From Flavobacteriales bacterium (GTDB lineage: Bacteria > Bacteroidota > Bacteroidia > Flavobacteriales_F > PHOS-HE28): DNA of 64,000 bases. How positions within the stretch are numbered: the stretch's first letter is position 1; each line of letters starts with the position of its first letter. A program made the position numbers and the translations under genes. The notes below the pieces were generated by a model. The model did no database searches. It was given only the letters and a program-made list of their open reading frames with translations, and had not been told where the DNA came from. Of the stretch, positions 2,460 through 59,153 are shown piece after piece. Location of the stretch: NCBI GenBank assembly GCA_017987115.1, contig JAGNUG010000001.1, forward strand, positions 33,405-97,404, in the 5' to 3' direction.

Positions 2460-2992
2460 TGAACGATCAAGAAAACATCATCAATAAAGTAGCATCCAGC
2501 GGTATCATCACTCTTGATCTGGAAGAGCTCTACCCGCAAGGAAAGCGCGTGATTTTCGACCTGAAGCCATTGCTTTGGGAAGAGGTGGCGTTGAAAGAAG
2601 CCGACCTACGCGCATTCGTAAAGGAGCATGACTGGGCGCAGTACAAGGGCCAATTCGTAAGCGTGCATTGTTCTGCTGATGCGATCGTGCCTACTTGGGC
2701 GTATATGTTGGTAGCTACACAATTGCAACCACACGCAGCATTCGTTTCGCAAGGCGATCTTGAACAATTGGAGCGTGCGATCTTTACACGGTTCGTTGCG
2801 CAATTGGATGTTGCTCCTTACCAAGGTTCTCGTGTGGTGGTAAAGGGTTGCAGCAAAGTACACGTGCCACTTAATGCGTACGTGGAACTCAGTGCCAAAC
2901 TATTGCCCGTTGTGAAGAGCTTGATGTTCGGGGAACCTTGTAGCACGGTGCCTTTGTACAAAGCACCGAAAGCCGCGTCCTCCGAGTCATAG
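2459..2992 (+). CDS. DUF2480-family protein (suf-operon associated in Bacteroidota)
   Basis: The ATG at 2459 overlaps the upstream stop. The sequence (VASSGIITLDLEELYPQG..HCSADAIVPTWAYM) resembles the DUF2480 proteins found 3' of suf genes in Bacteroidota. The family assignment is from memory. Confidence 0.55.
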   Translation: MNDQENIINKVASSGIITLDLEELYPQGKRVIFDLKPLLWEEVALKEADLRAFVKEHDWAQYKGQFVSVHCSADAIVPTWAYMLVATQLQPHAAFVSQGDLEQLERAIFTRFVAQLDVAPYQGSRVVVKGCSKVHVPLNAYVELSAKLLPVVKSLMFGEPCSTVPLYKAPKAASSES

Positions 2993-3023
2993 CTTATTCA
3001 ACGGCTCAACGTATCTTCACGGC

Positions 3024-5132
3024 ATGCGTTCATTCGTTGTTCTGGTCGCGCTTGTTGCGCATGCTATTCTCTTTGCTCAAGTAGACACTGCCACTGTTCC
3101 ACATAGTGAGAACGGTTGGTCTCTTTCCCCACACGGAACCATACGCGTACTGCTGATCTTCGCCGAGATCGATTATAATAAGAACGCTAGCATGGACCCA
3201 CAACCGGGAGGTGCAGAGCACTGGCCAAAAGGGAAGTTGCCCATTTGGAAGGACGAGGTCTTCGAACCGTTCCACACGACGGACCCAAAGGCATCCGTAA
3301 CCCGTTATTACAACGATATTTCCTTAGGTCAGTTCGAGGTACTGGGGGATTATATCGATGAGGTCGTGGTGATCCCAGAGAGTGAATACAAAGTAAGCAG
3401 CGGATATTCCTTAGGGTCATACGCTGTAAAAGTACTTGCATCGCGCAATGCACTCAAGACACATCATGACCTAAAGGTCGACGATTTCGATATGTGGAAA
3501 CGAGGGGGCAAACCAGGAATGCCGAAAACCAAAGGTCCCGATGATCCGCATAGTTATGACCATGTGATGGTGATCGTGCGCAACAGTAATCTTACACATG
3601 GCCAAGGAAGTGTGGACAGTGGTAGTCCTGGTAAATTATTCGGTTATGAAAGCGATTCACAAAGTCGGTTCGGAGCGATGTACGGTATGCCGTTCGATAT
3701 CCTGAAACACGAATTCAACCACTTATTGCTCGGTGGGAACAACTTCCACAGTGGCGGTGGAAATGCTGCACAATTCCAAAGCTATTTCATCTGCCAACAG
3801 GGTGGTTGGAGCATTATGGGTGCGGCGAACAGCTCTTTGCTTACTGCCAGTGCATGGGACCGGGATCGACTCGGATGGCGCGCAGCGGATGCTTGTGAAA
3901 GGATCAATGCAAGGAACACCACCGGTCTGTGTGTGAATGGTGACCTGGACCCAATGCAAGGTGATACTGGAATGTTCATTATCCGCGACTTCGTAACGAC
4001 TGGTGATGCTTTGCGTATCCGCATGCCGTTCCTGGAAGAAGATGTTCTACCGCAATGGCTTTGGATCGAGAACCATCAAACCTTTGCTCGCAATGGTAGT
4101 CCCACGGACAGGTATCATTGGGAGGAGCAACAACCCTGCTCACCTAAAGCCGAGCCAGGTCTGTACATGACCATGCAAGTTGATCGTGAAAAGAAAAGTG
4201 GAAAGGATATCTATGGTGGTTCGGCGGACTACTTGCGTCCTGTTCCGGCCAGCGGTAATTACGACCTGGAACTTACAGGTGATACGGTCAAGAATAGTTG
4301 CCCGTTCGGCGGGTCCTACCTCGCCTATGGAAGAACGCCAAGTTCCGCGAATCCCCTGACCGGAAACCATGAACAAGAACTACCCGTGTATGACAAGAAC
4401 CATGACGGTGTTCTGAAACGGGGAGATCACTGGATACCCGGAACCCGGATCGAAAAAGGGAACACGATCTATGGAATGGTCTTTACCGGGGCTACGGACC
4501 ACGCGTTCAGAATGAATGGAAAGCGTAAGATCGCGATGGGAACAAATCCCTCAAGTTCAAATATGATGACCTTGGTGAGCGGTAACGGAAGCGACTCTTA
4601 CAAAAGGGGGAAACCGAACGTGCGCACTGTATTCTTGAATGGCCTAAGTGTCGAATTGCTGAACATGGATGCCGCTGGCAATGCTACGGTCCGGGTACGG
4701 ACCAACGATACCGAAATTCTGGAAGATGTGCGTTGGTGCGCAGATAGTATCGTCCTACCTCCATTGCAGGGAAATGATGGCTACGCGCTATCACTCTCAT
4801 CCGGCAAGAACTTAGTGTTGGATCGCTCCAGAACCCCAACGCGCATCAATGATCCAGAGGAACGATCCGGGACGATCTATTTCAGTTCACCTACCAAAAT
4901 GGTATTATTGGAAAACGCTCGGGTTAAAATAGGAACGAACGCCACCGTACAACTGGAAAATGATGCTGAGCTACACCTCCTGCCTGGTGCGACCATGTGC
5001 TTCGGCACACAAGCGAAACTGAAGATCAATGGTGGTTCTCGTGTATTCTTACATGGCAATGCATCGATCGACTGCTCTCCGAACTTGTTGAAGAAACTGA
5101 ATGCGTCCGGCAAGCTTGTTCGTATCCCTTGA
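3024..5132 (+). CDS. Secreted putative zinc metalloprotease (HExxH)
   Basis: It has an N-terminal signal peptide (MRSFVVLVALVAHAILFAQ). The only recognisable catalytic motif in the 702 aa is HEFNHLLLGGNNFH. No T9SS CTD was recognised. Confidence 0.5.
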   Translation: MRSFVVLVALVAHAILFAQVDTATVPHSENGWSLSPHGTIRVLLIFAEIDYNKNASMDPQPGGAEHWPKGKLPIWKDEVFEPFHTTDPKASVTRYYNDISLGQFEVLGDYIDEVVVIPESEYKVSSGYSLGSYAVKVLASRNALKTHHDLKVDDFDMWKRGGKPGMPKTKGPDDPHSYDHVMVIVRNSNLTHGQGSVDSGSPGKLFGYESDSQSRFGAMYGMPFDILKHEFNHLLLGGNNFHSGGGNAAQFQSYFICQQGGWSIMGAANSSLLTASAWDRDRLGWRAADACERINARNTTGLCVNGDLDPMQGDTGMFIIRDFVTTGDALRIRMPFLEEDVLPQWLWIENHQTFARNGSPTDRYHWEEQQPCSPKAEPGLYMTMQVDREKKSGKDIYGGSADYLRPVPASGNYDLELTGDTVKNSCPFGGSYLAYGRTPSSANPLTGNHEQELPVYDKNHDGVLKRGDHWIPGTRIEKGNTIYGMVFTGATDHAFRMNGKRKIAMGTNPSSSNMMTLVSGNGSDSYKRGKPNVRTVFLNGLSVELLNMDAAGNATVRVRTNDTEILEDVRWCADSIVLPPLQGNDGYALSLSSGKNLVLDRSRTPTRINDPEERSGTIYFSSPTKMVLLENARVKIGTNATVQLENDAELHLLPGATMCFGTQAKLKINGGSRVFLHGNASIDCSPNLLKKLNASGKLVRIP

Positions 5133-5140
5133 GACGAACC

Positions 5141-7042
5141 TCAGTAAGCTCTTACGTTCTTGCCCTCCCGATAGTTGATGAACGCACGGTTCACTACACG
5201 GTTTCCACCCGGTGTGGGATAGTTGCCCGTGAAGTACCAATCACCTAAATGGTCCGGACAAGCGGCGTGCAATCCTTCAATGCTCTGGTAGATCACCTTT
5301 ACCTCAGCTTCAATATCCGGAGGGGTTAACATCTCCGCGATCTTATCGCTGATCTGTTCCGCAGTGAACGGTGCATAGATCGCTTTTACCACATTCTCCT
5401 GCTCGGTGAACGGTCGCCTTACCATCTCAAGGGCGCGATCATAAACGTCGTCGATGATATTCTCTTGCTTGGTCTCTTGCAGTAGCGCAATGGCAGCACG
5501 GAAAGCTGCTAGATCACCCATCTTCGCCATGTCAATGCCGTAACAATCGGGATACCGGATCTGCGGCGCACTGCTTACTACGATGATCCGTTTCGGTCCG
5601 AGCCTATCAAGCATTTTAAGGATGCTCTGCTTCAATGTAGTACCGCGCACAATGCTGTCGTCGATCACCACCAGATCATCCAAACCGCGACGCACACTGC
5701 CATAAGTGATGTCGTAGACGTGTGCTACAAGATCATCGCGTGCGTCATCGGCTGTTATGAACGTGCGCAACTTCGCATCCTTGATCGCCACCTTTTCCAG
5801 ACGCGGTCGTAATGCCAAAATGGATCGGATCTTCTCTCCGGAAGGGTTCGCACCCAATGCAAGGATCCGTCGTTCCTTCAGCTTGTCCAATTGATCATCC
5901 AATTCCTTGAGCATTCCATAGAACGCTACCTCTGCGGTATTGGGAATGAAGCTGAAAACGGTGTTCTCCAGATCATGGTCCACAGCATCCAGAATGGCCG
6001 GACAGACCGATCGACCCAGCGCCATACGCTCTTGGTACACATCACGATCACTGCCGCGACTGAAATAGATCCGTTCAAAACTGCATGAACGTTTTTCCAA
6101 CGGTTCCAGGATCTTTTCTTCACTGAACATTCCATCTTTGCGAATGATCAACGCGCAACCCGGAGTCAATTCGTTCACGTTTTCCGTGTGCAGCGCGAAT
6201 GCTGTTTGAATGGCCGGACGTTCACTCGCTACCACCACAACTTCATCATCGGCATACCAATACGCCGGACGAATTCCCGCTGGATCCCGAAGTACGAACG
6301 CATCACCATGGCCGATCATTCCAGCCAACGCATAGCCGCCATCAAAATCGATCGCACTTTGCTTGAGTATGCTTTGCACATCCATTTTCTCGGCCATGAT
6401 CTTCGTCACTTGCCGATCGTTATATCCTAATTGTTGGTGGAGCTGCACCAAGCGATCGTTCTCCTTATCCAGAAAATGTCCGATCTTCTCCAGAACGGTC
6501 ATCGTGTCGCTGCGTTCCTTAGGATGCTGACCAATGCTCACCAACAGGTCGAAAAGCTCATCGACATTGGTCATGTTGAAATTCCCTGCAACGACGAGGT
6601 TACGCGTGATCCAGTTGTTCAACCGGCGTCTCGGATGGCAATTCTCCTCACCATCCTTCCCGAAGGTGGCATAACGCAAATGACCCATAAGCAATTCACC
6701 CATGAACGGCATACGCTCCTTCAAAGCGGCAACATCGTTCACACTATTCGGATCGCTTGCAACAGTTTCGTTATATCCGCCATGGATCTTTGCAAAGATC
6801 TTTTGGATCGCCTGCTTATCCGTACTACGGGAGCGGTCGATGAAATTGAGACCCGGCGTAGGATCCAATTTTATCGTTGCAACGCCTGCGCCATCCTGAC
6901 CTCGGTTGTGCTGTTTCTCCATCAAGAGATACAACTTATTGAGGCCATAAAGCGGTGTGCCGTACTTCTCCTTGTAATACGCCAATGGTTTCCGCAGGCG
7001 GATCAGGGCAATGCCACATTCATGCTTGATCGCATCGCTCAT
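5141..7042 (-). CDS. purF: Amidophosphoribosyltransferase (long-form PurF)
   Basis: It is a class II glutamine amidotransferase with N-terminal nucleophile Cys after a short propeptide (MSDAIKHECGIALIRL). The PRTase motif VVIDDSIVRGTTLKQSI is present. The ORF is open to 7114 but the Met at 7042 places the Cys near the N-terminus. Confidence 0.8.
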   Translation of the reverse strand: MSDAIKHECGIALIRLRKPLAYYKEKYGTPLYGLNKLYLLMEKQHNRGQDGAGVATIKLDPTPGLNFIDRSRSTDKQAIQKIFAKIHGGYNETVASDPNSVNDVAALKERMPFMGELLMGHLRYATFGKDGEENCHPRRRLNNWITRNLVVAGNFNMTNVDELFDLLVSIGQHPKERSDTMTVLEKIGHFLDKENDRLVQLHQQLGYNDRQVTKIMAEKMDVQSILKQSAIDFDGGYALAGMIGHGDAFVLRDPAGIRPAYWYADDEVVVVASERPAIQTAFALHTENVNELTPGCALIIRKDGMFSEEKILEPLEKRSCSFERIYFSRGSDRDVYQERMALGRSVCPAILDAVDHDLENTVFSFIPNTAEVAFYGMLKELDDQLDKLKERRILALGANPSGEKIRSILALRPRLEKVAIKDAKLRTFITADDARDDLVAHVYDITYGSVRRGLDDLVVIDDSIVRGTTLKQSILKMLDRLGPKRIIVVSSAPQIRYPDCYGIDMAKMGDLAAFRAAIALLQETKQENIIDDVYDRALEMVRRPFTEQENVVKAIYAPFTAEQISDKIAEMLTPPDIEAEVKVIYQSIEGLHAACPDHLGDWYFTGNYPTPGGNRVVNRAFINYREGKNVRAY

Positions 7043-7263
7043 GGAAGAAGGCTCATCGGTTAAGAATGCAAAGATAGTTCGTTGAAAATGCGTGATGGCC
7101 CAACGCGGATCCATGTTGACAGATCGAGCGTTCCGGGTCGGCTTGAAGGCCCATTCACACTAAAATCACTGTTCATGTTGGTTTCCAGAAGGTTTTGAGG
7201 CAACTGGAACGCCCTCTTTGATGTCTATCTGTTGTAATTTAGCTATTTCGCCGGCGCGGTTTT

Positions 7264-30975: not shown

Positions 30976-31053
<78 letters not shown>

Positions 31054-31304: not shown

Positions 31305-34300
31305 TTACGGTTGTATTGAGACCCTGTCGGTATAGATACGCTCACCGGCTGTGACGCGCACGAGGTACATGCCACTGGCAAGACCACCATCCAGAGCTAC
31401 CACATTATTCAAGCGACCGTCCTGTGTAAGGAGCTGCTTGCTTAATATGAGTTTTCCGCTCATGTCCATGATCTCAAAGCTCACGGTCTTGATCTCACTA
31501 TCCAGTGAATTGATCACTACGGTGAGTACCGTCCCTTGGTTCGGATTCGGGTACAAGGCGAGTACGCTACTGGCACTTTCCAACAACACATTTTGTTGTC
31601 CACCTGCAACCATTGTATTGATCGTTACAGTGCAGGACTCTCCGGCCTGGCAATAAACGCCGCCTTTGAACGCCTCTACAGTTACGTCGTATGTGCTACC
31701 CGGAGTTAGTGCAGGCGCTATGGCCGCACCCCATCCCAAGCTTACATAGTACGTAGGTACCACACGAACGATCGGAGAAACCAACTCTGCATTGGTGAAG
31801 GTAAACCGGTACTGCGTTGCACCACCAACAGGGCGTGCATACAAGCGATTTGCGCTATTGTTCACAAAATCACGTGTTACGTTGCAGCTCAGGAACTGAG
31901 GGAAACCAGGTACATCGAACAACTTGGTGGGTGGGCAATTGGCCAACGCTTCGTCCCTTGTGAACCGGCAAGCGGGACCATACGCTCCGGCCACACCATT
32001 CACAACACTGCGCACACGAACGTTGAGTTGTACGCCGTTCGGGATCTGATCCACTGCTGCCCAGTTATTGATCTTGGCATGGCATGTACGCGCTGAGCCG
32101 ATGTTCGCAAAGTTGTCCGATACGTTATGACGACGCTGGCGCACATAGCTGTAGGTACCGTTCGGATCGAAGAACAAGAAGTCGTATCCTGAATCCGCAC
32201 CAGCTGCTCCGCCACCGTTGTAGTCCGCTGCAACAGCAGCATCTTCATTGCACACGATGTACTCACCGTTCTTCCAGAAATACTTATCGCAACTTGTAAA
32301 GAGCAGTTCGTTGGCCGATGGCGGAACGCAGAATGGAACTGCTGCCATGCTTGTGGCTCCGGAAGTAAAGTTATCCGTGTTGTCGATCAGGCGAACTCCA
32401 TCCGAAGTACTCAACACGTAACCTCCATCGGTGATGCCATTGCCTCCTGCATCGGTTACAGTAAGATCGTAGCATCCATCAGCAACTGAGAACGTTGCAA
32501 TTTCCATGGATCCTCCTGGTACATCCGCGAACGGTCCGCCGCTCGCAACTGGGGCTCCACCACCAGCTGGTGTAACTTGGAAAGTGACTTCGCTACCGAA
32601 TGCATCCAGATCGAAGGCGAGTGATAACATGTTGTTTCCCATCACCGCTCCTTGGAATTCGAATGCACCGATATCACGCGTTCCGAACAATGGCAAGTTG
32701 CGTTGATCATTCTCCAGCAACGCTGGATCACCTGTGTTGTAGGCTGCACTACTTGTTGATGCAATTGCTTGCGTTTGCGTAATGCCACCGTTATCCGCCA
32801 ATGCACCCAGACCAGGATCTGTTCCAACAACATTCCCATTCACACCGTCGCTGATACCGGAAGCTCCCGTACCATCTTCGAGCAAGGTGAACATTGCTGA
32901 TACGAACGCACCATTCGCATCCGGACCTGTGCCGGCACCTGTAATGCTGTTATCTGCAATGATCGAACTATTACTATTCAACGTTCCCACCATCACATTC
33001 ACACCACCACCGTTATTATCCGCGCTATTGTTTGCGATCGTGGATGCTAGCAATGTCGCTGTTCCACCTTCAACACTTACACCACCGCCATCGTTGGTGG
33101 CCGTGTTGCCGCTAACCGTGCTGTAGTTCACATCCAACGTACCGGTTCCTGGGCCTCCACCTTGCAGAAAAAGACCACCTCCGTCAAGTGCATTGTTACC
33201 GCTTACTGTAGAACGGGTGATGGTCATGGCTCCTGCATTCGAAGCCCAGAGTCCACCACCTTCATTAACGGCCGTATTGCCGGATGCCGTGCTTGTGATG
33301 AAACTTGTAGTACCGGTTCCACTTACATGCACACCACCACCGTTAATGCCTGCATTGTTTCCCATCAACGTAATGTCAGTAAGTGAAGCTGAACCATTGA
33401 AATTCTCAATGGCACCACCTGCACGAGCACATGAGTTGCCCGATAACATGCTACCCGAAATGGTTACTGAACCACCATCGGTCATTACACCACCACCGTT
33501 ACCGGTGTTGATGGGTGCCGTGTTGTTGGTGATCATTGCACCGTTCTGAATGATGAGCGTTCCACCGATGTTGAAAACACCTCCACCTCCTTGGTCGTTG
33601 CCTGCGTTATTTCCTGCGTTCGCCGTATTGCTATCAACGGTAGTTCCGTCGATGGTCATGCTGCCACTTGCATTCCAAAGGCCACCACCTTCTTGACCCG
33701 CTACGTTGTTAGCGAATGTACCACCGTTCACATTGGTGGTTCCAGTTCCGCTTACGTGAATACCACCACCGTTAACTCCGGCCGTGTTACCATCTGCAAC
33801 AGCGGCTCCGCCAACTGTAGAACTGGTGATCGTTACTGTTCCATTGAAGTTCTCGATGCCACCACCTGCACGAGCGCATGAGTTGCCGGATAAAATGCTA
33901 CCCGAAATGGTCACGGATCCACCATCGGTCATTACACCACCACCGTTACCGGTGTTGATGGGTGCCGTGTTGTTGGTGATCATTGCACCGTTCTGAATGA
34001 TGAGCGTTCCACCAATGTTGAAAACACCTCCACCTCCTTGGTCGTTGCCTGCGTTATTTCCTGCGTTCGCCGTATTGCTATCAACGGTAGTTCCGTCGAT
34101 GGTCATGGTGCCACTTGCATTCCAAAGGCCACCACCTTCTTGACCGGCTACGTTGTTAGCGAATGTACCACCGTTCACATTGGTGGTTCCAGTTCCGCTT
34201 ACGTGAATACCACCACCGTTAACTCCGGCCGTGTTACCATCTGCAACAGCGGCTCCGCCAACTGTAGAACTGCTGATCGTTACTGTTCCATTGAAGTTCT

Positions 34301-36203
34301 CGATGCCACCACCTGCACGAGCGCAAGAGTTGCCAGTAAGTGTGCTTCCGGTAATGGTCACGGATCCACCATCGGTCATTACACCACCACCGTTACCGGT
34401 GTTGATGGGTGCCGTGTTGTTGGTGATCATTGCACCGTTCTGAATGATGAGCGTTCCACCGATGTTGAAAACACCTCCACCTCCTTGGTCGTTCCCTGCG
34501 TTATTTCCTGCGTTCGCCGTATTGCTGTCAACAGTGGTTCCGTCGATGGTCATGGTGCCACTTGCATTCCAAAGGCCACCACCTTCTTGACCGGCTACGT
34601 TGTTAGCGAATGTACCACCGTTCACATTGGTGGTTCCAGTTCCGCTTACGTGAATACCACCACCGTTAACTCCAGCCGTGTTACCATCGCCAGCAACCGC
34701 ACCACCTACTGTTCCTCCAGTAATGGTGACCATGCCACCGAAATTCTCGATACCACCACCGGCGCGAGCGCAAGAATTGGATGAGATCGTGCTACCCGTG
34801 ATGGTTACCGTACCGCCGTCGGTCATTACCCCGCCACCATTACCGAGGTTCATCATGGCCACATTGTTAGTGATCATTGCACCGTTCTGAATGATCAGTG
34901 TTCCACCGATGTTGAATACGCCGCCACCACCTTGGTCATTGTTAGCGTTGCTAGCAGCATTGGCCGTGTTGCTCTCAATGAGCGTTGCATCAATGGTCAT
35001 AATGCCGCTGGCATTCCACAAGCCACCGCCTTCTTGCCCTGCGACATTGTTCTGGAAAGTACCACCGTTCACATTGGTGGCACCAGTACCACTTACGTGT
35101 ATGCCACCTCCGTTGATGCCCGCCGTATTGCCATCAGCGACAAGAGCTCCGCCTACGACAGCGGAACTGATGGTTACAGTGGCATTGTTGTTCTCGATAC
35201 CACCACCTGCGCGAGCACATGAGTTCGAGGCAATGAGGCCACCAAGGATGTTCACCGAACCAGCTACGGCCATTATACCACCACCGTTACCGGCGTTGAT
35301 GGGTGCCAAATTGTTCGTGATCACCGTACCGTTCTGAATGATGGTCGAACCACCGTTCTCGAACACGCCACCACCACCTTGATCGTTACCGGCATTGCTG
35401 CCCGCATTGGCCGTGTTCCCATCGATGGTGCAACCATCAATGGTCATGGTGCTACCTGTGTTATTCCAAACACCACCTCCTTCTTGCCCGGCAGCGTTGT
35501 TGGCAATGGTCACACTATTGAAGACTACTGTTGAAGCCGTGGTAACGTGCAGTCCACCACCGTTACCAGGGTTGGGCGTACCTGCTCCGCCGTCCACATC
35601 GTTTCCGCTCAACGAACCTCCCGTCATGATAAGGGAACCGGATGCGATCTCGATTCCTCCACCAGCACGGTTGGCCGAGTTCCCATCAATAGTACATGCA
35701 GTAATGGTTACTGCACCACCGGCTATGAATAGACCACCACCGCTACCACTCACCCCATTGGCCACACTCGAGGTTATACTGGAATTGCTGAGGTTCAATG
35801 TCGTACTCGTGCTCAGAATAGCTCCGCCATCGATCGCAGTACCCATTGTAAGTTGAACTCCATCAATATTTACCGTCCCTGCGTTGCTAAGGGTGAAGAT
35901 GCGGCTGTTCGAGTTACCGTTCAACGTTGTGTTGATCGTACCATTTCCTGTGATCGTTACATCTTCGCTCACGACCAGCTCGCCGGTCAAGAGTATGATG
36001 GGTACACCATTTGTCGTTCCGTCGAATACGATGTCGTCCGCACCTAGGTTAGCGTTCGCATCAAGCACGGCTTGGCGCAAAGAGCCTGGACCAGAGTCCA
36101 GCGAGTTCATTACCGTAAACGTTGCTGCTGAAGAATTAGAAAGGCCCCATAAGGATAGGGCCGATGTCAACAGAAGATTTCGAAGCGTCCTATTCTGATT
36201 CAT
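31305..36203 (-). CDS. Giant secreted parallel beta-helix repeat protein (about 1630 aa) with T9SS type A CTD
   Basis: It has a signal peptide. Gly/Asn-rich beta-helix turns (GGGIHVSGTG..NNVAGQEGGGLWN..) are organised as 149-aa units repeated at least five times, with near-identical 447-bp DNA copies between about 33090 and 35330. The C-terminus is LALYPNPNQG...GMYLVRV. Confidence 0.8.
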   Translation of the reverse strand: MNQNRTLRNLLLTSALSLWGLSNSSAATFTVMNSLDSGPGSLRQAVLDANANLGADDIVFDGTTNGVPIILLTGELVVSEDVTITGNGTINTTLNGNSNSRIFTLSNAGTVNIDGVQLTMGTAIDGGAILSTSTTLNLSNSSITSSVANGVSGSGGGLFIAGGAVTITACTIDGNSANRAGGGIEIASGSLIMTGGSLSGNDVDGGAGTPNPGNGGGLHVTTASTVVFNSVTIANNAAGQEGGGVWNNTGSTMTIDGCTIDGNTANAGSNAGNDQGGGGVFENGGSTIIQNGTVITNNLAPINAGNGGGIMAVAGSVNILGGLIASNSCARAGGGIENNNATVTISSAVVGGALVADGNTAGINGGGIHVSGTGATNVNGGTFQNNVAGQEGGGLWNASGIMTIDATLIESNTANAASNANNDQGGGGVFNIGGTLIIQNGAMITNNVAMMNLGNGGGVMTDGGTVTITGSTISSNSCARAGGGIENFGGMVTITGGTVGGAVAGDGNTAGVNGGGIHVSGTGTTNVNGGTFANNVAGQEGGGLWNASGTMTIDGTTVDSNTANAGNNAGNDQGGGGVFNIGGTLIIQNGAMITNNTAPINTGNGGGVMTDGGSVTITGSTLTGNSCARAGGGIENFNGTVTISSSTVGGAAVADGNTAGVNGGGIHVSGTGTTNVNGGTFANNVAGQEGGGLWNASGTMTIDGTTVDSNTANAGNNAGNDQGGGGVFNIGGTLIIQNGAMITNNTAPINTGNGGGVMTDGGSVTISGSILSGNSCARAGGGIENFNGTVTITSSTVGGAAVADGNTAGVNGGGIHVSGTGTTNVNGGTFANNVAGQEGGGLWNASGSMTIDGTTVDSNTANAGNNAGNDQGGGGVFNIGGTLIIQNGAMITNNTAPINTGNGGGVMTDGGSVTISGSMLSGNSCARAGGAIENFNGSASLTDITLMGNNAGINGGGVHVSGTGTTSFITSTASGNTAVNEGGGLWASNAGAMTITRSTVSGNNALDGGGLFLQGGGPGTGTLDVNYSTVSGNTATNDGGGVSVEGGTATLLASTIANNSADNNGGGVNVMVGTLNSNSSIIADNSITGAGTGPDANGAFVSAMFTLLEDGTGASGISDGVNGNVVGTDPGLGALADNGGITQTQAIASTSSAAYNTGDPALLENDQRNLPLFGTRDIGAFEFQGAVMGNNMLSLAFDLDAFGSEVTFQVTPAGGGAPVASGGPFADVPGGSMEIATFSVADGCYDLTVTDAGGNGITDGGYVLSTSDGVRLIDNTDNFTSGATSMAAVPFCVPPSANELLFTSCDKYFWKNGEYIVCNEDAAVAADYNGGGAAGADSGYDFLFFDPNGTYSYVRQRRHNVSDNFANIGSARTCHAKINNWAAVDQIPNGVQLNVRVRSVVNGVAGAYGPACRFTRDEALANCPPTKLFDVPGFPQFLSCNVTRDFVNNSANRLYARPVGGATQYRFTFTNAELVSPIVRVVPTYYVSLGWGAAIAPALTPGSTYDVTVEAFKGGVYCQAGESCTVTINTMVAGGQQNVLLESASSVLALYPNPNQGTVLTVVINSLDSEIKTVSFEIMDMSGKLILSKQLLTQDGRLNNVVALDGGLASGMYLVRVTAGERIYTDRVSIQP

Positions 36204-51767: not shown

Positions 51768-52019
51768 CGTTTTTGTTTTAGTCCCCGGCAGAACCGGGGT
51801 GGTTAGGGCCTCTCAACGCCGCCAATTCCAGAAGGTTCAGAACCGCTCCTGGTTATGCCAATTCCGCATATTCGCATACTGCGGAACAGGCCTGTACCAT
51901 GCGGGCAATTCCAGATCCTATGCGGAATCGGAATAGTTTATTCCAGTTCGGAATAATGGGCCGTGTTCGCATGCACATGCCTCTTAAGCATACCTCGTGT
52001 TGAAGTGTCTAGTGGTAAT

Positions 52020-52364
52020 ACTTCAATCTAAGTCGTCCATGACCTCAACATAAGTCGACCCATACTTCAACATAAGGTGACCATGACCTTAACATAAGTC
52101 GCCCCATACTTCAACATAAGGTGACCATGACCTCAACATAAGTCGACCCATACTTCAACATAAGGTGACCATGACCTCAACCTAAGTTGACCCATACTTC
52201 AACATAAGGTGACCACGACCTAAACATAAGTTGCCCTATACTTCAACATAAGGTGACCATGACCTCAACATAAGTCGACCCATACTTCAACATAAGGTGA
52301 CTATGACCTCAACATAAGTTGCCCTATACTTCAACATAAGGTGACCATGACCTAAACCTAAGTA
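52020..52364. repeat. Tandem direct-repeat array: 8 x 44 bp, each made of two related 22-bp half-units (16 x 22 bp)
   Basis: The unit is ACTTCAACATAAGGTGACCATG + ACCTCAACATAAGTCGACCCAT, repeated head-to-tail with only point substitutions. There are no spacers. Stop codons occur in all frames. Confidence 0.9.
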
Positions 52365-52436: not shown

Positions 52437-52754
52437 CTACGCGCTAGGCGGTGCGTCTCCTGCTGGTGGTGGTATGCCCAACGCCTGTTGCCTGCTTTCA
52501 TAGTTGAGCTGTTGCCTGCGTGGGTGTTGCTCCATTAGGAACTCACCGATGTCGCAACCGAACACACGTGCATAGCAGACCGCACTGTGCAAGCCCAGTT
52601 CATGCCGCCCATTTTCCGTTTTGCTGATCACGCTTTGGCAAATACCTACCTCCAGCGCCAAGGCGGTCTGTTTCCAATTATACTGTTTACGCAATTCGTA
52701 CAAACGGGCGCCATACATTTCATTGATCGCTTTCTTGTCTTTTTTAGAGGCCAT
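52437..52754 (-). CDS. XRE-family helix-turn-helix transcriptional regulator
   Basis: The HTH_3 motif is QTALALEVGICQSVISKTENG. The Met at 52754 was chosen. The C-terminal tail is Pro-rich. Confidence 0.65.
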   Translation of the reverse strand: MASKKDKKAINEMYGARLYELRKQYNWKQTALALEVGICQSVISKTENGRHELGLHSAVCYARVFGCDIGEFLMEQHPRRQQLNYESRQQALGIPPPAGDAPPSA

Positions 52755-52997
52755 CTTGGATCTGTGTTCGTAAGGAAAAGGGGCTCCGCGCCAAAGTGGG
52801 TGAAAGGATGAACCTTTTCCCAACTCCCGAAATACCTGTTTATGGGTATTTTTTAGTGCGCGCTATAGAGTAAGGATGAGGTGTGTGGGTTTTGTAAGGG
52901 ATAAAGTACATGGAGTAGACCGCTATTTGCTTTTGCGCAAACCACAAAACGCAAGGCATGTGCCGTGCATTAATATGGTTGGTCTAAGTTTACCAAC

Positions 52998-54659
52998 GTG
53001 ATGACGAAAACTGCCGAGAAACCGAAGCCGAAAGGCAAAACTGCCAAGCAACCAAAAGCCACTGAGCACGCCACGCTCCAGCGTGGCCGCACTGAAAATG
53101 CCGGGCAGGCCGAAGGCCGGGAGCCCGGCGAACCCAGCAACGGTGGTAAGAAGAAAAGGGCCACGCTGGAGCGTGGTGAGCCCAGCAAGAAGAACAATGG
53201 TTCCGCTTTCGAGCAAGCTTTTAAGAACATCGATGATGCGCTCTGGAAGGACCCCGGCTGCACCAGCGAACTGGACTACACCGAGCAGACCAGCTGGATA
53301 CTCTTTTTAAAATACCTCGAAGACCTGGAGGAGACCAAGCAGATGGATGCCGAGTTGCAAGACAAGAAGTATGTGCCCATTATTGCAAGCAGTTTCCGTT
53401 GGCCGGTATGGGCTTGCCCGAAGGACAAGGAAGGAAAGCTGGACCACCACAAAGCCCTGAGCGGAACGGACCTTGTGGAGTTCGTGAACCAGCAGCTCTT
53501 CCCTTACCTGAAGGGCTTCAAGCAGAAGGCCACCGGACCCAACACCATCGAATACAAGATCGGCGAGATCTTCTCGGAGATCAACAACAAGGTGCAGAGC
53601 GGCTACACCCTGCGCGATGTGCTGGACCATGTGGATGCCCTGCACTTCCGCAGCCAGGAGGAGAAGCACGAGCTGAGCCACCTCTACGAGGCCAAGATCA
53701 AGAACATGGGCAATGCCGGGCGCAACGGCGGCGAGTACTACACCCCGCGCCCGCTCATCAAAGCCATTGTGCAAGTGGTGGACCCACAAGTGGGCGAAAC
53801 CGTGTATGACGGTGCCGTGGGCAGCGCGGGCTTCCTGTGCGAGGCCTTCGACCACATGAGCGCCAGCGCCAAGAGCACCAGCGCGCAGAAGACCTTGCAG
53901 GAAAAAACCTTCTACGGCAAGGAGAAGAAGAGCCTGGCCTATGTGATCGGCATCATGAACATGATCCTGCACGGCATCGAGGCGCCCAACATCATCCACA
54001 CCAACACGCTCAGCGAGAACCTCGGCGACATACAGCCGAAGGACCAATACGATGTGGTGCTGGCCAACCCGCCCTTCGGTGGCAAGGAGCGGCCGGAAGT
54101 GCAGCAGAACTTCCCGATCAAGACGGGCGAGACCGCCTTCCTCTTCCTACAGCACTTCATCAAAAGCCTGAAGGCGGGCGGCCGCGCGGGCATCGTGATC
54201 AAGAACACCTTCTTGAGCAACACCGACAACGCCAGCATCAGCTTGCGGCGCAAGTTGCTGGAGGACTGCGACCTGCACACCATCCTGGACATGCCCAGCG
54301 GCACCTTCCAAGGGGCGGGCGTAAAGACCGTGGTGCTCTTTTTTGAGAAAGGGAAGAAGACGCGGAAGACTTGGTACTACCAGCTGGACCCCGGCCGCAA
54401 CATGGGCAAGACCAACCCGCTGAACGAGGCGGACATGGCCGAGTTCGTAAAGCTGGCGAAGACCAAGGGCGATAGCGCGAACAGTTGGTGTGTGAACACG
54501 AGCGAGGTGAACACGGATACCTACGACCTCAGTGCGAAGAACCCGAACGGACCGGAGGAAGCCCCGCTGCGCGACCCTAAGACCATCCTGCACGAAATGC
54601 GCGACCTGGATGCCAAGACCAAGGGCTTGTTGGACAACATCATGACGCTGCTGAAATGA
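52998..54659 (+). CDS. hsdM: Type I restriction-modification system methyltransferase subunit HsdM, with a Lys-rich REP-derived N-terminal extension
   Basis: It is an N6-adenine MTase with motif I GSAGFL and motif IV NPPFGGKE. HsdM-type TRD-contact regions are present (YYTPRPLIKAIV). The first 65 aa or so have no HsdM counterpart and contain translated REP palindromes. Confidence 0.85.
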   Translation: MMTKTAEKPKPKGKTAKQPKATEHATLQRGRTENAGQAEGREPGEPSNGGKKKRATLERGEPSKKNNGSAFEQAFKNIDDALWKDPGCTSELDYTEQTSWILFLKYLEDLEETKQMDAELQDKKYVPIIASSFRWPVWACPKDKEGKLDHHKALSGTDLVEFVNQQLFPYLKGFKQKATGPNTIEYKIGEIFSEINNKVQSGYTLRDVLDHVDALHFRSQEEKHELSHLYEAKIKNMGNAGRNGGEYYTPRPLIKAIVQVVDPQVGETVYDGAVGSAGFLCEAFDHMSASAKSTSAQKTLQEKTFYGKEKKSLAYVIGIMNMILHGIEAPNIIHTNTLSENLGDIQPKDQYDVVLANPPFGGKERPEVQQNFPIKTGETAFLFLQHFIKSLKAGGRAGIVIKNTFLSNTDNASISLRRKLLEDCDLHTILDMPSGTFQGAGVKTVVLFFEKGKKTRKTWYYQLDPGRNMGKTNPLNEADMAEFVKLAKTKGDSANSWCVNTSEVNTDTYDLSAKNPNGPEEAPLRDPKTILHEMRDLDAKTKGLLDNIMTLLK

Positions 54660-55753
54660 GAACCGCACATCCTTGGCCATTGGAAAGATTCGGCGAGGTA
54701 CTTGAGATCCGAAACGGTCGCAACCAACGTGAGGTTGAGAACGCTTCCGGACCTTATCCGATTTACGGCAGTGGTGGCGTCATGGGCTACGCCTCCGACT
54801 ATATCTGCGAAGCCAATACGACCATCATTGGACGTAAAGGCTCGATCAATAACCCGCTTTATGTTGAAGAGCGGTTCTGGACAGTTGACACTGCATTTGG
54901 CCTACATCACAAAGAGCGGCTTCATCCCCGCTTTTTGTATTACTACTGTTTGCATTATGATTTCAGCAAGCACAATCGCGGGACAACGATTCCAAGTCTG
55001 GTAAAGACAGAGTTACTGGAGATACGAATGCCCATTCCGCCCCTCCCCGAACAACAGCGGATCGTGGGGAAGTTGGATGCGGCCTTTGCAGCGCTCACGG
55101 AGGCGCAGGCCCACGTGGAGCGCAACCGGGCCAACGCGCGGGAGCTGTTCGAGAGCTATTTGAATGGGGTGCGCAACGAAATATCTTCAAATTGGCCTGA
55201 GAAATCTTTAGGGGAAGTTTGTGAGTATCAGAATGGAAAAGCACATGAAAAATGCATTGACCCAAATGGAAAATACATTGTCATAAACTCTAAATTCGTT
55301 TCTACTGAAGGCAAAAAATTTAAAAGGTCAAAACATAACTTGTTGCCGTTGGTACCTAACGATATCGTAATGGTCCTAAGTGACGTGCCGAATGGCAGAG
55401 CTTTAGCTAAATGCTTTTTAGTAGATAAGGCCAATACATATACATTGAATCAGCGAATATGCGTATTTCGTTCAAGCCATTTTGACACTAACTTTCTATT
55501 CTTTCAGCTAAACCGCAACAAGCACTTTTTAGCTTTCAACAACGGTGAGAATCAAACCAATATGCGGTTGAATCAGGTTCTTAGTTGCCCATTATTTGTT
55601 CCGCCTATTGCTGAGCAGAAAGAATTTGAATCAAGGCTTCGTAAAATGTCGGAAAAAGCTGAACACCTCGAAACCACCTACGCCCAAAAGCTGAGCGAGC
55701 TGGAGGAGTTGAAGAAAAGTATATTGGGTGCGGCGTTTAGGGGGGAGTTATGA
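54656..55753 (+). CDS. hsdS: Type I R-M specificity subunit HsdS
   Basis: Two target-recognition domains are separated by conserved helical spacers (LPEQQRIVGKLDAAFAALTEAQ, LFVPPIAEQKEFE). It is coupled with 4-nt overlaps to both hsdM and the downstream ORF. Confidence 0.8.
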   Translation: MRTAHPWPLERFGEVLEIRNGRNQREVENASGPYPIYGSGGVMGYASDYICEANTTIIGRKGSINNPLYVEERFWTVDTAFGLHHKERLHPRFLYYYCLHYDFSKHNRGTTIPSLVKTELLEIRMPIPPLPEQQRIVGKLDAAFAALTEAQAHVERNRANARELFESYLNGVRNEISSNWPEKSLGEVCEYQNGKAHEKCIDPNGKYIVINSKFVSTEGKKFKRSKHNLLPLVPNDIVMVLSDVPNGRALAKCFLVDKANTYTLNQRICVFRSSHFDTNFLFFQLNRNKHFLAFNNGENQTNMRLNQVLSCPLFVPPIAEQKEFESRLRKMSEKAEHLETTYAQKLSELEELKKSILGAAFRGEL

Positions 55754-56823
55754 AGCAGTACATTTACACTGGGCTCGCCGGGCTCCAGCCCGGCTCTTCA
55801 GCCACTACTGGCAATAGTCGGTTCGCCACGCTCCAGCGTGGCTCTTCAATACAGGCCAAGCTAGAGCTTGGCGAACCCAGCAATAGTGCCAAGCTGGAGC
55901 TTGGCGAACCCAGTGTTGGTGCAGTTGGTAATAGTGCCAAGCTGGAGCTTGGCGAACCCAGTGTTGGTGCAGTTGGTAATAGTGCCAAGCTGGAGCTTGG
56001 CGAGCCCAGTGGTGGTGCAGTTGGTAGTAGTGCCAAGCTGGAGCTTGGCGAACCCAGTGGTGGTGCAGCTGGTAATAGTGCCAAGCTGGAGCTTGGCGAG
56101 CCCAGTGGGGAGCCCAGTGGTGAATTGAAGTGGACGGACCGGGGTTATATGCCACACGTCGATGGCCAACATTTGATCCAACACGTTAGCTATCATCTAG
56201 CGGATAGTTTGCCGAAGGAGGCGCTGGAGCAGATGAGTGTTCAATTGAAAAGCCTACCTCCGAAGTTGCGCGATGCGGAGAAGGAAAAACGTATTGCGGC
56301 GTACATCGATGCAGGAAAAGGCAGTTGTGTGCTGCGTGTTCCGGAGATCGCTGAGATGGTACAGAACGCATTCCTGTTGTTCCATGGTGAGCGGTACATC
56401 TTGCATGCGTGGTGTGTGATGCCTAACCATGTGCATGTCCTCTTTCAACCAGTGCAAGGTTGGTCAATGAGCAAGATCGTGGCTTCGTGGAAGTCCTATA
56501 CCGGGCGGCGCATCAGTGAGTATTTGAAATCCACTGGGCTCGCCGGGCTCCCGGCCTATGGCCTGCCCGGCTCTTCAGCTACTGCTAACAACAGTCGGTA
56601 CGCGCTCCAGCGTGGCACTTCCTCTTCTAAACACTCCCCGATCTGGCATCGCGAGTACTGGGACCGCTATATTCGGGACCGCACGCATTATTCGAACGTT
56701 GTGAAATACATCCACGAGAATCCGGTGAAGGCCAAGTTGGTATCGAGGCCGGAGGATTGGAAATGGTCGTCTGCATTTGCTGGGCTCGCCACTCACCAGC
56801 GTGGCTCTTCCTCTGAACAATGA
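55750..56823 (+). CDS. rayT: REP-associated tyrosine transposase (RayT, IS200/IS605 Y1 family) with REP-derived in-frame segments
   Basis: The HuH motif is HAWCVMPNHVHVLF. The C-terminal motif WHREYWDRYIRDRTHYSNVVKYIHENPVKAKLV is typical of RayT/TnpA_REP. The core probably starts at the Met at 56149. The first 133 codons are translated REP repeats. Confidence 0.75.
   Translation: MKQYIYTGLAGLQPGSSATTGNSRFATLQRGSSIQAKLELGEPSNSAKLELGEPSVGAVGNSAKLELGEPSVGAVGNSAKLELGEPSGGAVGSSAKLELGEPSGGAAGNSAKLELGEPSGEPSGELKWTDRGYMPHVDGQHLIQHVSYHLADSLPKEALEQMSVQLKSLPPKLRDAEKEKRIAAYIDAGKGSCVLRVPEIAEMVQNAFLLFHGERYILHAWCVMPNHVHVLFQPVQGWSMSKIVASWKSYTGRRISEYLKSTGLAGLPAYGLPGSSATANNSRYALQRGTSSSKHSPIWHREYWDRYIRDRTHYSNVVKYIHENPVKAKLVSRPEDWKWSSAFAGLATHQRGSSSEQ
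55769..56105. repeat. REP/BIME-like palindrome cluster: composite 80-bp element plus 6 tandem 48-bp units carrying GCCAAGCTGGAGCTTGGC
   Basis: The 18-bp palindromes fit GCCNNGCTSSAGCNNGGC. Instances are GCCGGGCTCCAGCCCGGC at 55777, GCCACGCTCCAGCGTGGC at 55825, and six GCCAAGCT(GG/AG)AGCTTGGC copies with 48-bp period. Further copies lie at 53070, 53160, about 56535-56612, 56780-56810 and 57210. Confidence 0.85.
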
Positions 56824-59153
56824 ACGAAGCCGAAACACGCGCCGAACTGATCGACCCCGCACTACTTGCGGCGGGCTGGGGCGTTGTGGAGGGCAGTCGC
56901 GTGCGGCGTGAGTACATTATTACCCTGGGCCGTTTGCAGGGCGCTGCTGGCAAACGCAACACCCCGGAGATCGCCGACTACGTGCTGGAATACAAAGGCC
57001 GTATGGTCGCCGTGATAGAGGCAAAGAAGGCAAGTCTACCGGTAAGTCAAGGATTGGGCCAAGCCAAGAAGTATGCAGATAAATTGAGGGTGCGGCACGC
57101 ATACAGCACCAACGGCAAAGGCATCTACGCCTTGGACATGCTGGTAGGCCGTGAGGGTGACATTGCAGGATGGCCTACACCGGATGAGTTGTGGAAGTTG
57201 GTACAACCGGCCACGCTGGAGCGCGGCCAGCCCAACGTTAATTGGACGGACCGTTTCGGTCTTGTACCCTTCGAAGACAAAAGCGGTAGCTGGCAACCGC
57301 GCTACTACCAAGACCTCGCCATTCAACGCGTGTTGGATAAGATCGCAGAGGGTAAGGATCGCATCTTGCTTACGCTTGCTACCGGCACGGGCAAAACGGC
57401 GATCGCATTCCAGATCGCTTGGAAATTATTCGAGAGCCGATGGAATTTGAAACGCGATGGCGAACGTCGTCCGCGCATTCTGTTTTTAGCGGATCGGAAT
57501 ATTCTTGCCAACCAAGCATTCAATTCATTCAGCGCATTTCCGGAGGATGCCTTGGTGCGCATCGATCCGGCGAGCATCAAGAAGAAAGGCAAGGTGCCGA
57601 CCAACGGCAGCATCTTCTTTACCATCTTCCAAACGTTCATGTCAGGACCGGATGATACACCCTACTTCGGTGATTATCCAGTTGACTTCTTTGATCTGAT
57701 CATCATCGATGAGTGCCACCGCGGTGGTGCCAATGATGAAAGCTCGTGGCGCGATATCCTCACCTATTTCAAACCGGCAGTGCAACTGGGCCTCACCGCA
57801 ACACCCAAGCGCGACCAGAATGTGGATACCTACAAGTACTTCGGTGATCCGGTGTATGTGTATTCGCTCAAAGAAGGGATCAACGACGGGTACCTAACGC
57901 CATTCAAAGTGCGGCAGATCACCACCACGTTGGATGAATACACCTACACGAATGATGATGGGGTGGAAGAAGGCGAGGCCGAACAAGGGCGTACCTACAG
58001 CGAAGCAGATTTCAACAAGATCATCGAGATCAAGGAACGGGAAGCCTATCGCGTAAGGACCTTCATGGACATGATCGATCAGCGGCAGAAAACGTTGGTG
58101 TTCTGTGCCACACAATTGCACGCCTTGGCGGTGCGCGATCTGATCAACCAATACAAGACCAGCCCGGACCCGCACTACTGCGAGCGGGTTACAGCGGATG
58201 ACGGCAAGATCGGCGAACAACACCTGCGCAATTTTCAGGACAACGAACACACCATCCCTACCATCCTCACCACCAGTCAAAAACTGAGCACCGGTGTTGA
58301 TGCCCGCAACATCCGCAACATCGTATTGATGCGGCCGGTGAACAGTATGATCGAGTTCAAGCAGATCGTTGGTCGCGGTACGCGCTTGTATGATGGCAAG
58401 GACTATTTCACCATCTATGATTTCGTTAAAGCGCATCAGCATTTCCAAGACCCTGAATGGGATGGTGAGCCGCTGGATCCGGGTCCTCCACGGGAGCCGA
58501 AGATCAGCGCACCGTACCCGCCTCCCGATCCGAATGACCAATTGGTCGATCCACCAGGAGAGGTGGAGCGCAAGATCCTACGTATAAAACTTGCAGATGG
58601 CAAGGAGCGGCAGATCCAGCACACATCAAAAACATCGTTCTGGAGTCCGGATGGTACACCGATCAGTGCACCGGAATTCATCAAGTTGCTATTTGGAGAA
58701 TTGCCGCAATTGTTCAAGAATGAAGATGAGCTACGCGCGTTGTGGAGCCGGCCGGATACCCGCAAAAAGTTGTTGGAAGAACTCGGTGAGAAAGGCTTCC
58801 CAATGAATCAATTGGAAGACCTGCAACGCTTGATCGATGCAGAGAAAAGCGACCTCTTCGATGTACTCGCCTACGTGGCTTACAACAATGCCACGCAACT
58901 GCGCACGGAGCGAGCAAACGCAGCCCGCAACCACTTCGATACCTATGCGGACAAGCAACGCGCATTCCTCGATTTTGTACTACAGCATTACGTGCGGGAC
59001 GGAGTAAAGGAACTGGACCAAGAGAAACTACCGCAACTGCTCTTGCTCAAATACAAGACGCTACCCGATGCCACAAAAGAGCTCGGCGACATAGCAGCCA
59101 TCCGCGAAACCTTCTTCGGGTTCCAGCAGTGGTTGTATGGGGGAGTAGGGTAA
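56820..59153 (+). CDS. hsdR: Type I restriction enzyme R subunit HsdR
   Basis: The N-terminal nuclease-domain start (MNEAETRAELIDPALLAAGW) is canonical. SF2 helicase motifs are LATGTGKT (I) and DECHRG (II). An ATLERG palindrome insertion lies at 57210. Confidence 0.85.
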   Translation: MNEAETRAELIDPALLAAGWGVVEGSRVRREYIITLGRLQGAAGKRNTPEIADYVLEYKGRMVAVIEAKKASLPVSQGLGQAKKYADKLRVRHAYSTNGKGIYALDMLVGREGDIAGWPTPDELWKLVQPATLERGQPNVNWTDRFGLVPFEDKSGSWQPRYYQDLAIQRVLDKIAEGKDRILLTLATGTGKTAIAFQIAWKLFESRWNLKRDGERRPRILFLADRNILANQAFNSFSAFPEDALVRIDPASIKKKGKVPTNGSIFFTIFQTFMSGPDDTPYFGDYPVDFFDLIIIDECHRGGANDESSWRDILTYFKPAVQLGLTATPKRDQNVDTYKYFGDPVYVYSLKEGINDGYLTPFKVRQITTTLDEYTYTNDDGVEEGEAEQGRTYSEADFNKIIEIKEREAYRVRTFMDMIDQRQKTLVFCATQLHALAVRDLINQYKTSPDPHYCERVTADDGKIGEQHLRNFQDNEHTIPTILTTSQKLSTGVDARNIRNIVLMRPVNSMIEFKQIVGRGTRLYDGKDYFTIYDFVKAHQHFQDPEWDGEPLDPGPPREPKISAPYPPPDPNDQLVDPPGEVERKILRIKLADGKERQIQHTSKTSFWSPDGTPISAPEFIKLLFGELPQLFKNEDELRALWSRPDTRKKLLEELGEKGFPMNQLEDLQRLIDAEKSDLFDVLAYVAYNNATQLRTERANAARNHFDTYADKQRAFLDFVLQHYVRDGVKELDQEKLPQLLLLKYKTLPDATKELGDIAAIRETFFGFQQWLYGGVG

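Follow-up and report, generated by a model that had tools for sequence, protein, structure and literature searches.

We analysed a 64-kb stretch of a 102-kb contig in a metagenome-assembled genome of a Flavobacteriales bacterium (hereafter the window). According to the open reading frame (ORF) calls, positions 52998-59153 hold a single plus-strand operon, hsdM-hsdS-rayT-hsdR, in which the genes of a type I restriction-modification system enclose a gene for a RayT, a transposase of the REP-associated tyrosine type (REP, repetitive extragenic palindrome), and in which short palindromes resembling REPs lie within the coding sequences. Neighboring genes overlap by 4 nt at all three junctions, and at hsdS/rayT and rayT/hsdR the overlapping sequence is ATGA. 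The features of the operon are listed below, all on the plus strand.

52998..54659, plus strand: hsdM, type I methyltransferase, 553 aa (Pfam N6_Mtase 4.7e-63; HsdM_N from aa 76)
53062..53186, plus strand: REP cluster in the hsdM extension, with a palindrome at 53070-53087, a degenerate copy at 53116-53138 and a palindrome with a GAGCCCAGC tail at 53160-53186
54656..55753, plus strand: hsdS, specificity subunit with two target-recognition domains (Pfam Methylase_S 1.1e-37, 2 stretches)
55750..56823, plus strand: rayT, REP-associated tyrosine (HUH/Y1) transposase, 357 aa (NCBIfam NF047646, Pfam Y1_Tnp, Foldseek)
55768..55850, plus strand: 80-bp REP composite at the 5' end of rayT, palindromes at 55777 and 55825 in '-' orientation, encoding TGLAGLQPGSSATTGNSRFATLQRGSS
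55855..56120, plus strand: six REP units in '+' orientation, AATAGT-GCCAAGCTGGAGCTTGGC-GARCCCAGT, encoding (NS)AKLELGEPS repeats
56533..56625, plus strand: degenerate second composite in rayT, between the HUH and YWDR motifs, ~85% identical to 55768-55850
56779..56811, plus strand: degenerate REP unit in the RayT C-terminal tail, just 5' of ATGA/hsdR, with its palindrome at 56788-56805 (2 mismatches)
56820..59153, plus strand: hsdR, EcoAI-family (type IB) restriction subunit, 777 aa (NCBIfam restrict_EcoAI, Pfam)
57210..57227, plus strand: REP copy in the HsdR linker, encoding ATLERG, at codon 131 (1 stem mismatch)

The hsdM product matches the PADLOC model MTase_I over aa 71-552 (8.3e-160), and its S-adenosylmethionine-binding motif YDGAVGSAGFL and its NPPF motif are the same as in orthologues; its first ~68 aa form a Lys/Pro-rich, lineage-specific N-terminal extension. 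HsdR matches the NCBIfam model restrict_EcoAI end to end (aa 1-773, 806 bits, cut-off 550) and shows the Pfam domains HSDR_N, ResIII and EcoEI_R_C. By their profiles the operon genes are predicted to be an EcoAI-family (type IB) set of type I restriction-modification genes.

The protein encoded between hsdS and hsdR scores 88.4 bits against NF047646 REP_Tyr_transpos (NCBIfam, cut-off 80) and 35 bits against Pfam Y1_Tnp (1.7e-08, threshold 23), and remains below threshold with the NCBIfam IS200 model (19.7 bits, cut-off 55). Its sole sequence match in the PDB is 4ER8, E. coli TnpArep (phmmer), and Foldseek with the AlphaFold model returned the same structure as best match (4er8_A, E = 1.5e-4, target-normalised template modelling score 0.61), followed by IS200/IS605 TnpA structures; the predicted local distance difference test (pLDDT) score of this model is 60-88 in the core and only 56 on average. 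The conserved core extends over about aa 125-345. The HUH motif reads HVHVL (H227 and H229, 56428-56436), the YWDR motif YWDRYIRD, and Y320 (56707-56709), within VKYIHENPVK, aligns with Y115 of 4ER8, which we take to be the catalytic tyrosine of E. coli TnpArep. H227, H229 and Y320 are invariant in an alignment across 23 homologues. NCBIfam, Pfam and the modelled fold together indicate that the ORF is a genuine RayT. The ratio of nonsynonymous to synonymous substitution rates (dN/dS) of rayT was 0.08-0.38 over 22 pairs, at or below 0.2 in 19 of them, and 0.08-0.18 with regard to close relatives linked to restriction-modification (RM) genes, values which indicate that the gene is kept intact by purifying selection. 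The REP-encoded segments of RayT (aa 1-121, 266-305 and 346-357) have pLDDT values below 50, which predicts them to be disordered. When the N-terminal 127 aa, made up of repeats only, served as query, one weak match was obtained; on plasmids, tblastn with the RayT core recovered no relative exceeding 25% identity.

Screening of the window for GCCNNGCTSSAGCNNGGC yielded nine exact matches where 0.00 were expected, and none of 100 shuffles contained any; when up to two mismatches were permitted, 13 matches were found (0.78 expected, shuffle maximum 3). All of them lie inside 53070-57227 (4.2 kb), while the other ~58 kb of the window contain none, so the palindromes as seen here are local to the operon. 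In place of the many genome-dispersed and mostly extragenic copies expected of REPs, the window thus holds 13 copies within 4.2 kb, all intragenic; hsdS is the one gene of the operon in which the pattern scan of the window found no match. Perfect palindromes are located at 53070, 55777, 55825, 55888, 55936, 55984, 56032 and 56080. The copy at 55855 is 1 nt off, in the loop, those at 53160 and 57210 have one stem mismatch each, and those at 56599 and 56788 two mismatches each; the copy at ~56540 is split by a 12-nt insert, and at 53116 a 14-nt palindrome without the four central bases is followed by a GAACCCAGC tail. When the copies are oriented by their loop, they reveal an asymmetric unit (AATAGT or GAAGA)-palindrome-GARCCCAGY, with eight copies pointing one way and five the other way. 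A conserved GTAG (or CGTC) tag next to the stem, as in REP families, is missing, no conserved GTAG being present beside the oriented copies. Five of the six array units make up a 48-bp tandem repeat (4.7 copies, 96% matches), and the second composite differs from the first by indels of 12 nt and 3 nt.

The stems are GC-rich, 7-8 bp long, and occur as singles and as inverted doublets, as REP and REPIN hairpins do (REPIN, REP doublet forming a hairpin). The outer two copies in hsdM are inverted and can pair as one REPIN-like hairpin of 126 nt; folded as single-stranded DNA (ssDNA), 53060-53185 gave -40.8 kcal/mol (z = -6.8), and the composite at 55768-55850 folds into two 7-bp hairpins (-21 kcal/mol, z = -4.3). 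A terminator reading of the hairpins was rejected, as no T-run is found 3' of them, and an Rfam scan of the operon gave no matches. All window copies are read in the frame in which GCC encodes Ala, giving ATLQRG, AKLELG(EPS) and AGLQPG.

Much of this had been anticipated in a preliminary description of the locus. It had placed a RayT with an HUH motif between hsdS and hsdR, with 4-nt overlaps, and the ORFs and junctions are as it described; it had tied its case to a profile match of the ORF to Y1_Tnp/RayT, which we obtained. The sequence WxRxYWDRxIRD that it singled out is indeed a conserved RayT motif, the tyrosine aligned with E. coli Y115 being instead Y320 in VKYIHENPVK. We could likewise verify its count of at least 13 palindromes, finding a copy, in some cases degenerate, at every coordinate listed, its 80-bp composite (plus the related copy at 56533-56625), and its observation that all copies are in frame and leave every reading frame open.

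For a comparison we assembled 85 non-redundant loci encoding relatives of RayT (36-79% identity); hairpins were scored in the 78 of them that contain both landmark motifs. GC-rich perfect hairpins are present upstream of rayT in 74 of the 78 loci and downstream in 60; in the window, rayT carries REP copies at both gene ends, and the flanks of related loci showed that hairpins are there likewise confined to the locus. The stems differ by lineage, beginning with GCCNNGCT, GCCAATC, GCCGACG, GCCGAGC, GCGGACG or GCCGGTT. In a test blind to pairing, every GCC-N12-GGC 18-mer was taken: 73% of those near rayT had at least four of five inner pairs, compared with 3% at distances of more than 6 kb. Stem positions 4-7 were Watson-Crick paired in 1141 of 1392 cells (shuffles: mean 556, maximum 614), with two to four pair types per position and 23 distinct arms, and the variable residues of the encoded AxL[QE]xG peptides covary as reverse-complement codons (T/R, K/L, G/P, R/P). 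The constraint acts at the level of the nucleic acid and not through peptide conservation, and on this covariation we rejected a reading of the repeats as a protein-level feature. Standalone members of the clade display the textbook layout of a RayT with REPs on both sides. Of the 78 loci, 28 have a further hairpin between the HUH and YWDR motifs, its arm being identical to a flanking arm in 22 of these 28, and REPs inside rayT are therefore typical of the clade. Judged by these comparisons, the palindromes behave as the cognate REPs of RayT.

Several individual loci illustrate the range of arrangements. A standalone rayT (L222, 643-1779) is accompanied by alternating arrays of two palindromes, six upstream and nine downstream, and a 36-nt perfect palindrome in another locus (L165, 2806-2841) equals two fused REPs. 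A Chitinophagales metagenome-assembled genome (L025, 2457-2710) contains four palindromes of the same family in the intergenic region between amino-acid permease-like and hemerythrin-like ORFs, with no rayT within the 3.5 kb examined. This cluster was recovered in a contig scan with GCCNNGCTGGAGCNNGGYGARCC, in which the matches listed were mostly single chance matches in high-GC genomes; the informative ones among them were, besides L025, L026 (rayT-hsdR) and L042/L062. A scan of viral contigs for the palindrome gave 7 stray matches.

RayT-less type IB operons with an HsdR 53-67% identical to that of the window occur on cyanobacterial and proteobacterial plasmids. GC-rich perfect hairpins number zero in the RayT-less orthologous operons versus 2-15 in RayT-bearing operons. 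HsdM of the RayT-less orthologues begins with MFEQxFKNIDD and has no N-terminal tail; the window has the codon GCT at the position of the orthologues' Met, and the 68-aa extension must therefore be translated. Where the window HsdR has the ATLERG insert, between HSDR_N (aa 2-88) and ResIII (aa 159-331) as assigned by Pfam, RayT-less HsdR has a 9-residue loop. Among 76 homologues, 39 have a loop of 9 aa; in closer ones it measures 14-48 aa and often includes between one and four hexapeptides encoded by palindromes, or degenerate remnants of such. In other lineages a second REP type (GCCAATC/GCCATTC) has in-frame copies at further variable loops, namely at HsdM aa ~146 and ~303-321 and at HsdR ~281, the latter site being invaded in both L152 and L154. 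The L154 locus (1-7197) further carries seven REPs upstream of hsdM and a 470-aa rayT ORF with nine REPs, and its HsdR has a 76-aa REP-rich insert in the same loop as in L152.

Indels at REP sites are multiples of 3, and every bona fide intragenic copy, at no fewer than eight independent sites (at least 8) and for both REP types, uses one reading frame; frame calls at standalone high-GC loci were left unused, as these contain many spurious overlapping open frames. Stop codons were rejected as the cause of the single frame, since the 18-mer is open in each of its three frames. The palindromes are thus inserted relative to orthologues, keep the frame and lie in tolerant protein parts, as do in-frame intragenic palindromic elements; from the alignments, the Pfam domains and the RayT model, these places are the HsdM tail, the HsdR interdomain linker and the segments of RayT predicted to be disordered. 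The preliminary description had regarded the palindromes as insertions. Their absence from RayT-less hsdM and hsdR orthologues bears this out, with the restriction that related operons have the same sites (HsdM tail, HsdR ~130 and three rayT sites), so that much of the REP load is inherited and not fresh.

The closest relative of the window (L226, GCA_016708985.1) serves as a natural control, with syntenic flanks, HsdM 84%, HsdR 88% and DNA 86-87% identical. Its hsdS-hsdR slot (L226 7122-10004) lacks rayT and holds DUF3800 together with a 652-aa SLFN_AlbA_2/HATPase_c_4 protein (Schlafen/AlbA_2 ATPase). The gene for the latter is likewise ATGA-coupled to hsdR, so the swap of cargo is clean at the hsdR start codon. 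L226 has one intact palindrome in hsdM, which corresponds to the window's first copy, and one decayed palindrome in hsdR, while the window hsdM has ~105 extra in-frame nt holding two more REP units. From this comparison, REP number follows the presence of rayT and shifts by in-frame indels.

Relatives of RayT at 46-77% identity occupy the same slot, usually with ATGA coupling to hsdR, in hosts that by their source-record names belong to several phyla, including Flavobacteriales and a Candidatus Kryptoniota genome. hsdR is located directly downstream of rayT on the same strand in 21 of the 62 loci whose downstream sequence spans at least 400 nt, and 13 of the 25 loci that extend for at least 3 kb to both sides hold type I genes. 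The RayT-linked HsdR proteins are of two architectures, the EcoAI type and a ~1000-aa HSDR_N/SWI2_SNF2/T1R_D3/T1RH-like_C type. By gene content, the rayT-hsdR arrangement is recurrent, found with at least two type I families and not peculiar to the window genome. In neighbour-joining trees the RM-linked RayTs separate into two subclades matched by two subclades of HsdR, and RayT-less operons are scattered among them; sister RayTs at 52-55% identity are standalone, beside housekeeping genes. The slot in RayT-less relatives contains toxin-antitoxin pairs, a PDDEXK nuclease, DUF3800 with the Schlafen/AlbA_2 ATPase, or nothing, and cargo is swapped between close relatives while hsdM and hsdR remain 65-88% identical.

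With regard to single loci of the ~1000-1056-aa HsdR family, RayT lies between hsdS and hsdR in L192 (6260-14522), L194 (1789-9679) and L160 (156-11200); a YgjP-like metallopeptidase gene is situated 3' of hsdR in L192, and in L160 a SLFN_AlbA_2/HATPase_c_4 gene stands between rayT and hsdR. A close HsdR relative of 904 aa (P0129) has an extra GIY-YIG domain (PF01541; Pfam list).

The locus shares several traits with RAYT/REP systems ('REPtrons'), such as E. coli TnpArep (PDB 4ER8) with its REPs and bacterial interspersed mosaic elements (BIME) or the RAYT-REPIN systems of Pseudomonas: an HUH/Y1 enzyme of the RayT family, a gene with short GC-rich hairpins on its flanks, the stems of which evolve together with the enzyme, inverted doublets that can form a REPIN-like long hairpin, and purifying selection on the gene. 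Unlike in REPtrons, the window rayT is nested in a type I restriction operon and translationally coupled to it, the hairpins are few and local instead of hundreds dispersed over extragenic regions, most copies lie inside coding sequence, rayT included, and the self-complementary palindrome bears a 9-nt GARCCCAGY tail and lacks a conserved GTAG tag. IS200/IS605 elements belong to the same enzyme superfamily, and recognition of subterminal hairpins on single-stranded DNA is a logic that they have in common with RayT/REP; they differ from the locus in the IS200-model score given above, in the lack of tnpB here, and in that rayT shows no sign of moving as a discrete multi-copy unit. Type I operons with an accessory gene between hsdS and hsdR are known as well, e.g. 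prrC in EcoprrI. The window agrees with such cargo-bearing operons in slot, orientation and exchangeable cargo, but unlike other cargo of this slot, rayT is a transposase-family gene that is not known to have a defence role and whose own repeats have extended into the hsd genes on either side.

RAYT groups accompanied by few repeats are known (PMC5581495), and in-frame intragenic REPs of the GTAG/CGTC type have been reported from Opitutus, Thauera and others (Di Nocera et al. 2013, PMC3733652), in a survey that also describes REPs overlapping RayT ORF ends and cites the Rickettsia palindromic elements. Like the latter and like the intragenic REPs, the window palindromes are short, lie in frame and leave the genes open; a further common trait is that copies often come as dimers or in groups, which encode 20-30 aa or more, are often N-terminal and are often found in DNA-handling enzymes, helicases and repair proteins being examples in the survey (PMC3733652). 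In contrast to the cases described there, the invaded genes are the immediate operon neighbors of RayT, plus rayT, and the window copies use one reading frame throughout; restriction genes are not mentioned in the survey ('restriction', 0 occurrences). No report of a RayT nested in a type I operon was found in the literature searched, although absence there is no proof. The preliminary description had treated a RayT in a defence operon as an oddity and intragenic REPs as exceptional. Neither view holds, as rayT lies upstream of hsdR in many lineages and at least two type I families, and in-frame REPs within genes had already been described (PMC3733652). On present sequences, rayT nested in type I operons recurs in many uncultured bacteria and is a new habitat for a known element and not a one-off.

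We consider it reasonably probable, though well short of certain, that the locus represents a RayT/REP element residing in the cargo slot of an operon that is mobile and addictive, and that the REPs of this element multiply locally and survive only as codon-neutral copies in tolerant loops. The element, consisting of an HUH/Y1 ssDNA transposase and ~18-bp GC-rich hairpins, would occupy the hsdS-hsdR cargo slot of an EcoAI-type operon. RayT is kept by selection and would make new REP copies, mainly in cis, with the cognate hairpins multiplying close to rayT. As the operon has no spare non-coding DNA, surviving copies would be those that add whole codons in tolerant places, namely the HsdM N-terminal tail, the linker between nuclease and motor of HsdR, both ends of RayT and one internal RayT loop. 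The restriction operon would offer the element a stable home that itself moves between genomes, and the association would be parasitic or commensal and not useful to restriction. Of the RayT-driven REP spread that the preliminary description had proposed, local in-frame spread remains the best reading, and copy number does differ between close relatives. Its term 'remodelling' is too strong, because the inserts are in the HsdM tail, the HsdR linker and disordered parts of RayT, and the HsdM motifs and the HsdR profile are intact.

Four points weigh against a locally multiplying passenger. Non-tandem copies have differing flanks, which gives no sign of very recent transposition in the window. 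The other two frames of the 18-mer are free of stops, and random insertion followed by stop filtering does not predict the use of a single frame. The same slot, the same strand and the usual ATGA coupling in at least two unrelated type I families have no obvious reason in a selfish element; such constancy is also the pattern expected of a selected functional link. Finally, to our knowledge, RayT-catalysed copying of REPs has been demonstrated for no RayT.

The third of these points leads to the possibility that RayT is a co-opted restriction accessory, which regulates, rearranges or mobilises the hsd genes via the hairpins or acts as an ssDNA nuclease effector. In EcoAI-type as well as ~1000-aa HsdR operons, rayT recurs between hsdS and hsdR in a specific orientation and translationally coupled, which speaks for this, as do the mirrored RayT and HsdR subclades, the strong purifying selection on rayT and the toxin-antitoxin and nuclease genes in the slot of relatives. 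However, close relatives exist without rayT, and the sister genome with an 88% identical HsdR has other cargo; the sister RayTs at 52-55% identity stand alone near housekeeping genes; neither a PADLOC model matching RayT nor a paper in the literature searched was found; and the specificity of RayT is for its own co-evolving hairpins, which offers no obvious route to recognition of foreign DNA. We therefore hold this explanation to be possible but rather unlikely. A working role of a RayT clade in type I operons, in which it would act on hairpins embedded in the hsd genes, setting the balance of hsdM to hsdR expression (M:R), excising or exchanging hsdM-hsdS as ssDNA, or serving as a back-up single-strand nuclease, seems doubtful to a similar degree.

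Less likely still, we think, is that the hairpins are kept as cis-acting RNA or DNA elements, which for example stabilise the hsdMS message or lower hsdR expression, with RayT only seeding or maintaining them. Such a role is compatible with RayT as a hitchhiker or as a functional component. Eight hairpins crowd the stretch from hsdS to the rayT core, and REPs between cistrons stabilise upstream mRNA, as in malE-malF. Many REPs have been argued to act as RNA elements (Di Nocera et al., PMC3733652). On the other hand, RayT-less orthologous operons work with zero hairpins, the copies in hsdM codons and in the hsdR linker have no obvious regulatory position, and the hairpins have neither a T-run after them nor an Rfam match. 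Selection of AxL[QE]xG-EPS-like peptides as flexible linkers or tails, with palindromy incidental, would agree with the single reading frame of all copies and with the Gly/Pro/Ser-rich, predicted disordered nature of the peptides, but is highly improbable, given that the variable residues covary exactly as reverse-complement codons (N/I in addition to the pairs named above) with both orientations occurring, that the same hairpins are found outside ORFs (in L025, 5' of rayT in L004 and L007, and in the array upstream of L154 hsdM), and that the copy has decayed in the sister genome, which lacks rayT.

Upstream of the operon, the minus strand carries a gene divergent from hsdM (52437-52823) for a 128-aa XRE/Cro-type HTH_3 protein, which could be a candidate controller protein of the restriction operon. 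About 630 bp 5' of hsdM lies a 44-bp tandem repeat (52018-52363; 22-bp sub-period, 7.9 copies, 90% matches) that looks like an iteron or binding-site array. Elsewhere in the window, the only Rfam/ARAGORN match is a tRNA-Ala(GGC) at 30978-31052, and a 447-bp tandem repeat (33394-35508; 4.7 copies, 84% matches) lies within a 1632-aa ORF on the minus strand (31305-36203), presumably a repetitive surface protein.

The effect of RayT/REP systems on their hosts is a long-standing question that is hard to test with hundreds of scattered REPs. Here, one RayT meets about a dozen targets in one operon with measurable phenotypes, namely methylation, restriction and the M:R expression ratio, and natural controls are at hand in the RayT-less orthologues and in the syntenic sister genome with its decaying relics. 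The locus is also a clean example of repeats lengthening protein tails and linkers in frame. The recurrent nesting would reflect either a selfish element specialised on another selfish mobile element or an unrecognised restriction accessory; if RayT were functional in type I operons, RayTs would gain a defined function together with compact, assayable targets.

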